Assembly: GCF_003334355.1 (NCBI RefSeq)
Contig: NZ_QOWP01000044.1
DNA length: 24,113 nt
Strand: one strand, 5' to 3'
From: Escherichia coli
GTDB lineage: Bacteria; Pseudomonadota; Gammaproteobacteria; Enterobacterales; Enterobacteriaceae
This document shows, in pieces, positions 1 through 2,366 of this stretch (position 1 is the stretch's first letter; each line of letters opens with the position of its first letter). Below the pieces are notes generated by a model. It worked only from the letters and a program-made list of their open reading frames with translations. It searched no databases and was not told the DNA's origin. The position numbers were made by a program, and so were the translations under genes.

Positions 1-77
1 AATCGGTGGAGCTGCATGACAAAGTCATCGGGCATTATCTGAACATAAAACACTATCAATAAGTTGGAGTCATTACC
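1..77 (+). mobile_element. insB: IS1 right terminus (partial, cut by window edge): last 20 codons of insB (stop 60-62) and the 23-bp IRR ending at 77
   Basis: Bases 1-77 match the recalled 3' end of IS1 (...AATCGGTGGAGCTGCATGACAAAGTCATCGGGCATTATCTGAACATAAAACACTATCAATAAGTTGGAGTCATTACC); frame from pos 3 reads [19 protein letters not shown], the InsB C-terminus. Confidence 0.85.
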
Positions 78-151
78 ACGTGTGGCTGCTTTCCTATTTT
101 AACTGCAAAAGGGAGGAGTACCTTTTCAAGCGATGCAATAACATTACTCAT
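78..151 (-). pseudogene. chbC: 5' fragment of chbC (chitobiose PTS EIIC), truncated after about codon 25 by the IS1 junction
   Basis: Minus-strand ATG at 151 reads [25 protein letters not shown], the ChbC N-terminus as I recall it, then runs into IS1 and stops after 7 IS1-encoded codons. Located directly downstream of chbB as in the chbBCARFG operon. Confidence 0.8.
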
Positions 152-235
152 AGAAAAATACCCTTAAAAACCGCAATTTAAATATTGCGGTATTGATTTA
201 TGAAATAACTCTTTGACGGGAAAATTTAAAATAAA

Positions 236-556
236 TTAATTTGCTGCGGCTTTTTTAATCGCTGCAACCGCAGCCTTAAGCACGCCTAAACCATCGACTT
301 TGCCATAAAGCAGCGAGTCAATTACTTCAACCGGTTTGTTGGGTAACAAACGCTGGATTTCGGGCAACATATAAGCAATCTGCGGCCCTAATAACACGAC
401 ATCGGCATTCTGACCTTTTTCACCAGCCAGTGTTTCCGGAAATGCTTCAATAATGACCGGAACTTCATATTTTTCTGCCTGTGCGCGCATTTTTGATACC
501 AGTAAAGAGGTAGACATGCCCGCAGAACAAAACAGATAAATGTGTTTCTTTTCCAT
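236..556 (-). CDS. chbB: PTS chitobiose-specific EIIB component
   Basis: 106-aa [23 protein letters not shown]... with the CSAGMSTS phospho-cysteine loop typical of lactose/cellobiose-family EIIB; same length as K-12 ChbB. Confidence 0.92.
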
Positions 557-793
557 AAAACTGCCCTCATCGACGATTATCTGTCAGCCAGACACTCCGC
601 AAGCCTTAACCTGCTTCCATGCTCTGGGTAACTTGCGAAACCAACATGACTTTTTTTGTGGCTGAAAGGAGTATACGGTATAGACCTGAGCAATAGTATT
701 TCTTTGACCTTATAAATTGTTTCTCCTTGACCTGTGGTTATGACCCTCTTCACATTTCGGGCAAATAATTCGCGAAGATAATTAAGAACTCAG
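557..793 (-). promoter_or_regulatory. chb operon promoter/operator region (known to be controlled by NagC, ChbR and CRP); contains a direct repeat TTGACCT at 704-710 and 727-733
   Basis: Non-coding region upstream of chbB; repeats seen directly. Assignment of binding proteins is from established knowledge of the chb promoter, not mapped here. Confidence 0.4.
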
Positions 794-821
794 GCCAAAA
801 AAACCGGCGCAATGGCCGGTT
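794..821 (-). terminator. Rho-independent terminator downstream of osmE
   Basis: On the minus strand, stem AACCGGC / GCCGGTT (plus 802-821) followed by a run of 7 U (plus A-run 797-803), 33 bp after the osmE stop. Confidence 0.6.
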
Positions 822-853
822 TCCGTTGTTACTCAAGCTTTCAGACGAATTGA

Positions 854-1192
854 TTACTTCGCAGCCTGTGGATCAGTGTCGTATTCAGCACAGGTCTGAT
901 AACCGGAGTTGATGACATGTCCGGTATCATCTAACGCGACAAAGTAGGTTTCTGCTTTACCATCACGTTGACCCAGGATGTAGGTCTGGCAAGTACCGCG
1001 AGCATGGATCATGCTCACTTCAGACGAAGGTTTACCCGCAATTTGTGCAACCTGCGCCCGGCTCATGCCTTTTTTGACGTCTTTCACCACAGGCTGTACA
1101 AACTGGTCTTTGGTACGATCATAAGCCGTACAACCCGCCAGCATGGTTAATACCGCCGCTGCACTCAGAATTCCTGCCATATTCTTGTTCAT
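854..1192 (-). CDS. osmE: Osmotically inducible lipoprotein OsmE
   Basis: 112-aa ORF with signal peptide and lipobox (LAGC); recognised as OsmE; position between chbB and nadE as in K-12. Confidence 0.9.
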
Positions 1193-2263: not shown

Positions 2264-2366
2264 CACGCCGGATGCGGCGTGAACGCCTTATTCGACCTAT
2301 AAAACTATGCAAATTCAATACATTGCAGGAGTCGAATAGGCCTGACAGGCGTAGCACGTCAGACGG
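2264..2366. repeat. REP/BIME-like palindromic units in the nadE-cho intergenic region
   Basis: GCCGGATGCGGCGTGAACGCCTTATTCGACCTA resembles the canonical E. coli REP consensus (GCCGGATGCGGCGTGAACGCCTTATCCGGCCTAC); a second partially inverted unit follows (...GAATAGGCCTGACAGGCGTAGCACGTCAGACG). Confidence 0.6.

Follow-up and report, generated by a model that had tools for sequence, protein, structure and literature searches.

A probable IS1 knockout of the chitobiose permease gene chbC in Escherichia coli

Introduction

Uptake of chitobiose in Escherichia coli is mediated by the phosphotransferase system (PTS) ChbBCA, of which ChbC is the only EIIC component. Induction of the operon promoter, Pchb, depends on chitobiose entering the cell through ChbC, with the phosphorylated sugar acting via ChbR, and on relief of NagC repression. 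In the stretch of E. coli DNA analyzed here (24,113 nt, referred to throughout as the window), the first codons of chbC lie directly beside the end of an insertion sequence. This arrangement raises the question of whether an element has transposed into the permease gene and inactivated it, and further what may have become of the remaining operon and why this part of the gene should be struck. The element belongs to the IS1 family, whose members are about 768 bp long, carry the transposase genes insA and insB’ with a programmed -1 frameshift and duplicate 9 bp, sometimes 8 bp, of their target upon insertion. Literature searches on chbC together with Shigella, on the chb operon together with insertion sequences and on the strain PSS-12, a close relative considered below, returned nothing relevant.

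We conclude, with a probability of about 0.93, that IS1 transposed into E. coli chbC and knocked out the permease, with the consequences for the chb system that are set out in the Discussion.

The chbC-IS1 junction

The left edge of the window (positions 1–77, plus strand) consists of the right (IRR) end of an IS1 element with its transposase sense on the plus strand; these 77 nt are the part of the left-hand element that is known, the remainder running off the window edge. They are identical to an annotated IS1A copy of E. coli WP7-S17-ESBL-04 and differ by one base from the copy in E. coli 23AR0998. The frame at 3–62 (+) encodes the final 19 residues of InsB and includes its stop codon; it corresponds to the 3’ terminus of the transposase gene annotated for IS1 in both of these genomes. 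The terminal inverted repeat (GGTAATGACTCC...) ends at position 77 and abuts host DNA exactly at the junction, such that the break between element and host lies at 77/78 and homology to K-12 chbC begins with base 78. From there to position 900, the window is identical base for base to K-12 MG1655 (100%). The transposase is encoded on the plus strand and the chb genes on the minus strand, and the two are therefore convergent.

The host sequence adjoining IS1 is the 5’ remnant of chbC (78–151, minus strand), which retains nucleotides 1–74 of the gene, corresponding to codons 1–24 and two bases of codon 25, and matches K-12 at 74 of 74 positions. Its identity is further given by its place: the remnant lies directly downstream of chbB, from which it is separated by a spacer that is likewise identical to K-12. 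Alignment to K-12 chbC places the break after codon 25, in agreement with the initial annotation, which had described the gene as cut by IS1 about 25 codons in. Across the break runs a fused chbC’-IS1 open reading frame of 31 amino acids (56–151, minus strand), in which 25 ChbC residues are followed by six residues encoded by IS1 (VMTPTY) and a stop. Codon 25 itself is a hybrid, GT being contributed by chbC and G by IS1, and still encodes Val. The seven foreign codons counted initially are accordingly right to within one codon, as six codons are purely of IS1 origin and the hybrid codon 25 is shared. The same peptide is deposited at NCBI as WP_249537063.1, described as “hypothetical protein, partial [Escherichia coli].”

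For comparison, intact K-12 ChbC comprises 452 amino acids, with the PTS_EIIC domain (PF02378) spanning residues 30–363, and its residues 5–442 align with the solved structure of a homologue, Bacillus cereus ChbC (3QNQ). A complete EIIC domain is absent from the window, where 25 native and six foreign residues precede the stop. Since the frame closes before the EIIC domain begins at residue 30, no permease can be made from it. Judged by its sequence, chbC is here a pseudogene remnant with none of the ten-helix EIIC domain left.

The upstream part of the chb operon

On the other side of the remnant, the operon is preserved. The chbB-chbC spacer (152–235, minus strand; 84 nt) is intact and identical to K-12, as is chbB (236–556, minus strand), which encodes the EIIB component of 106 amino acids and whose DNA is the same as that encoding chbB WP_000412169.1 in K-12 and PSS-12. 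Full (100%) identity to K-12 extends through the chb promoter and regulatory region that separates chbB from osmE (557–853, minus strand) and into the 3’ end of osmE, which lies in the same stretch. That chbB and the chb promoter are intact, as had been proposed, is thus borne out by complete DNA identity to K-12. A simple promoter and terminator scan of window positions 1–900 gave counts no higher than expected by chance.

The spacer retains two further elements in their K-12 form. One is the pairing site for the small RNA ChiX (also SroB or MicM) at window positions 209–220, where the mRNA strand reads CCCGUCAAAGAG, a perfect 12-nt complement of the ChiX sequence CUCUUUGACGGG; the sequence thus matches the ChiX seed. 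The other is a hairpin at 170–191 (ACCGCAAT...ATTGCGGT), with a T-run after it on the mRNA strand. When the complete window was scanned against Rfam, the sole match was the ES036 (CssrF) sRNA at 2301–2343 (+) in the nadE-cho intergenic region (gathering-level, 42.9 bits, E = 9e-6), which is unrelated to the chbC break.

The right-hand IS1 and the age of the insertion

The window is bordered by IS1 on both sides. Its last 77 nt (24037–24113) are the exact reverse complement of positions 1–77 and represent the IRR end of a second IS1 (plus strand), inverted relative to the first and continuing off the right window edge. The IRR ends of the two inverted copies face a unique segment of 23,959 bp. 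The window therefore looks like one whole short-read contig, each end of which overlaps a collapsed IS1 repeat by 77 nt. As the contig ends 77 nt inside IS1, the far side of the element, be it the rest of chbC and chbARFG, a deletion or an inversion, lies outside the view that the window offers.

The nearest complete relative is E. coli PSS-12, which was isolated from human faeces in Ecuador and has about 20 IS1 matches; it is 99.963% identical to window positions 2660–24113 (21.4 kb; 8 mismatches). The right-hand IS1 junction of the window recurs exactly in PSS-12, yet the chbBCARFG genes of that strain are intact. Because PSS-12 carries the right-hand IS1, which in the window lies 24 kb from the chbC break, together with an intact chbC, the chbC insertion is recent, namely younger than the common right-hand IS1 and specific to a sub-lineage. 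The suggestion that the interrupted gene marks an IS-rich host-adapted lineage finds no support, given that the sequence is that of E. coli and that its nearest complete relative is a faecal isolate with an intact chbC. A Shigella origin was also considered and is rejected in view of the E. coli label of WP_249537063.1 and by the 99.96% identity to PSS-12.

At the right-hand junction, which does not belong to the chb lesion, IS1 truncates a gene with a J-domain and Sel1 (TPR) repeats that lies downstream of gdhA and is a pseudogene here. Comparison with E. coli OW1E2, which has an intact 1,944-nt J-domain/Sel1 gene and an adjacent gene for an Hsp70-family partner, shows that the 3’ two-thirds of the former are retained in the window (22706–24036, minus strand), and that IS1 replaces about 610 nt at its 5’ end as well as the whole adjacent Hsp70-family gene. 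No target duplication is present at this IS1 in PSS-12, where topB adjoins the element. The lesion looks like an adjacent deletion associated with IS1. The remaining part of the J-domain/Sel1 gene also differs in length by 1 nt from intact copies and is annotated as frameshifted in PSS-12.

Other IS1 insertions at chbC

Complete E. coli genomes with IS1 near chbB-chbC were collected and the insertion sites aligned, each being described by the length of chbC that remains next to chbB. Simple insertions in the orientation seen in the window were found in 23AR0998 (88 nt of chbC kept), 1332KP (about 199 nt), PM4 (about 212 nt) and AR_0119 (about 642 nt, with the rest of chbC beyond the element). 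A further simple insertion, with the rest of chbC beyond it, keeps 76 nt in FACU 2024 and has the opposite orientation. Two alleles in the same orientation as the window are rearranged: in WP7-S17-ESBL-04 (129 nt kept), a deletion reaches celF, and in 19SZHZ869Rt (48 nt kept), IS1 is followed by ycjN as part of a large rearrangement. In LR-72, IS1 lies in the chbB-chbC spacer, again in the same orientation, and chbC is intact. Together, these make at least eight other independent IS1 sites in the interval from the chbB stop codon to about nucleotide 642 of chbC, and seven of the eight share the orientation of the window. In 23AR0998, which is the one neighboring allele whose flanks were read for a target duplication, the element is flanked by a 9-bp duplication, TTTTGATTG. 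The corresponding duplication at the chbC site of the window is predicted to be ACGTGTGGC (window 78–86).

The spacer element of LR-72 is an IS1B located about 20 nt past the chbB stop, equivalent to about window position 215, so that it coincides with the ChiX pairing site or directly adjoins it. Three further genomes share the match pattern of LR-72 and may have a similar spacer insertion.

These alleles bear on what lies past IS1 in the window. A simple insertion would predict a second junction at which TTGATTGCATTAACGTGTGGC is joined to GGTGATGCTGCCAACTTACTG, the IS1 left end GGTGATGCTGCC being followed by the rest of chbC and by chbA. An exact look-up of the partial products predicted for this case (SKLAASPPHVNAIKN... 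and KLAASPPHV...), aimed at the far half of chbC in the draft assembly discussed below, found neither on record, as would also happen if gene callers had picked a different start codon or if the ChbC of this strain departed from that of K-12. A ChbC product with Met36 as its start has been predicted in hundreds of genomes whose chbC is intact and consequently says nothing about chbC in this strain.

The alternative that comes closest to the evidence is that the junction is real, but that IS1 borders an adjacent deletion, inversion or rearrangement, such that the remaining chbC-chbARFG genes are absent or parted from Pchb. Both ends of the contig are inverted IRR ends of IS1, as would be expected for an inversion isomer or for two independent insertions. 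The inverted topology fits a simple second insertion and an inversion isomer equally; the latter could have its origin in intramolecular replicative transposition or in a later recombination of the two IS1 copies. Furthermore, since the right-hand IS1 of PSS-12 lacks a target duplication and has replaced part of the J-domain gene and the whole Hsp70 gene, an IS1-linked deletion has evidently happened in this lineage. Of the six other alleles that have IS1 within the first ~215 nt of chbC, two are rearranged as well (WP7-S17-ESBL-04 and 19SZHZ869Rt). Against this stand the other four, in which a simple insertion has left the remaining operon where it was, and the window itself, which shows no sign of a deletion. 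A rearrangement behind IS1 is a real possibility, though less likely than not. It would alter the fate of the distal genes; the interruption of chbC by IS1 is common to both readings.

Recurrence at the 5’ end of chbC

The clustering of IS1 sites was quantified by searching 400-nt stretches of K-12 against 5,426 complete genomes, with a split match taken as an interruption and a coverage below 80% as an interruption or deletion. The stretch covering chbC nucleotides 1–280 and 120 nt upstream is split in 31 genomes and less than 80% covered in 33. For nucleotides 281–680 both figures are 23, and for nucleotides 681–1080 both are 1, all of these being counts of genomes and not of independent events.

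In principle, such an orientation-biased landing zone could result if gut lineages with expanded IS1 were under selection to lose the chitobiose permease while keeping chbB and the ChiX-sponging spacer. In favor of this, at least nine distinct IS1 sites, that of the window included, are spread from the chbB stop to about nucleotide 642 of chbC, eight of them in one orientation, and the split matches fall steeply along the gene (31, 23 and 1 genomes). However, IS1 prefers AT-rich targets, and the GC content of the first ~280 nt of chbC is 37–41% and that of a 100-nt window over the spacer 32%, as opposed to 47–58% in the remaining gene. Selection for loss of function would moreover be expected to strike the whole of chbC as well as chbA and chbB. 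In addition, the carrier genomes simply hold many IS1 copies (36–40 or more matches, compared with 7 in K-12), the counts do not separate descent from repeated insertion, and the region is intact in 99% of genomes. Such selection is improbable and is not needed to account for the recurrence. Given the low GC content of the first ~280 nt of chbC, the likeliest explanation is a preference for AT-rich targets in genomes with active IS1.

Lastly, a chimeric join of the IS1 repeat to the chb locus during assembly is very hard to credit. Mis-joins do occur at repeat boundaries, and a short-read contig whose two ends both lie exactly 77 nt inside a collapsed repeat could invite one. However, the identical chbC-IS1 junction is found in a separate, independent E. 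coli draft in GenBank (GCA_002190165.1, contig LYBG01001072.1 of 23,998 bp, which ends just 19 nt into IS1), the break coincides with the final base of the IS1 terminal repeat, which is what real insertions show, and a de Bruijn contig should include only junctions spanned by reads. The junction is most likely real. Its exact sequence occurs in none of the 5,426 complete E. coli genomes and otherwise in this one draft E. coli assembly only.

Discussion

The preferred reading is that of a transposition event in which a 768-bp IS1 would have entered chbC between coding nucleotides 74 and 75, with its transposase gene directed against chb transcription. The ChbBCA transporter is thereby left without its permease, and, from what is established for the chb system, both uptake and phosphorylation of chitobiose should be lost. 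ChbR would then have no inducer, and Pchb would be expected to stay repressed despite its intact sequence. The activator gene chbR presumably lies downstream of the IS1 site in the chb operon. As induction needs uptake through ChbC as well as ChbR, encoded downstream of IS1, Pchb is probably not inducible in this strain. The earlier description of the operon as “transcriptionally intact” can hence be upheld for the DNA sequence and, in view of established knowledge of chb regulation, is unlikely to hold for its inducibility. If chbA, chbR, chbF and chbG are still present behind the element, they should receive far less read-through transcription, given the classical polarity of IS1 in either orientation. 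The strain should be Chb- and, by the same reasoning, would have no route to the evolved cellobiose-utilizing (Cel+) phenotype via the chb operon. A minority of cultured cells could nonetheless retain an intact chbC, which would be compatible with a consensus contig.

The retained spacer deserves separate consideration. The chbBC spacer acts as a sponge for ChiX and destabilizes it (PMC7815308). In this strain, the decoy is likely silent, since the operon is probably no longer inducible.

For practical purposes, the isolate is to be scored as chitobiose-negative and chbC is to be annotated as an IS1-disrupted pseudogene. A mildly useful by-product of the analysis is the catalogue of repeated natural IS1 strikes on the AT-rich 5’ end of chbC in E. 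coli.

The allele is a genuine but ordinary knockout that follows a textbook mechanism, and similar natural alleles are already recorded as pseudogenes in RefSeq. It resembles the classical polar IS1 mutations of gal and lac and the IS1 pseudogenes of E. coli and Shigella in its exact-end junction, its truncated reading frame and its position within an operon; no mechanistic difference from such classical inactivation is apparent at the one end of the element that the window displays. The closest counterparts are the chbC::IS1 pseudogene alleles of seven strains in RefSeq, which involve the same gene and the same element, in six of the seven cases in the same orientation, while the site in the window (74 nt) is distinct from all seven positions. 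A further set of IS insertions is known from the same locus, where IS1, IS2 or IS5 upstream of the cel (= chb) promoter activates the operon for cellobiose use (Parker and Hall, tabulated in PMC5493358). These share the locus and the class of element with the window, but differ in position and effect: the cel-activating insertions precede the promoter and turn the operon on, whereas the IS1 described here sits inside the permease gene and destroys its function.
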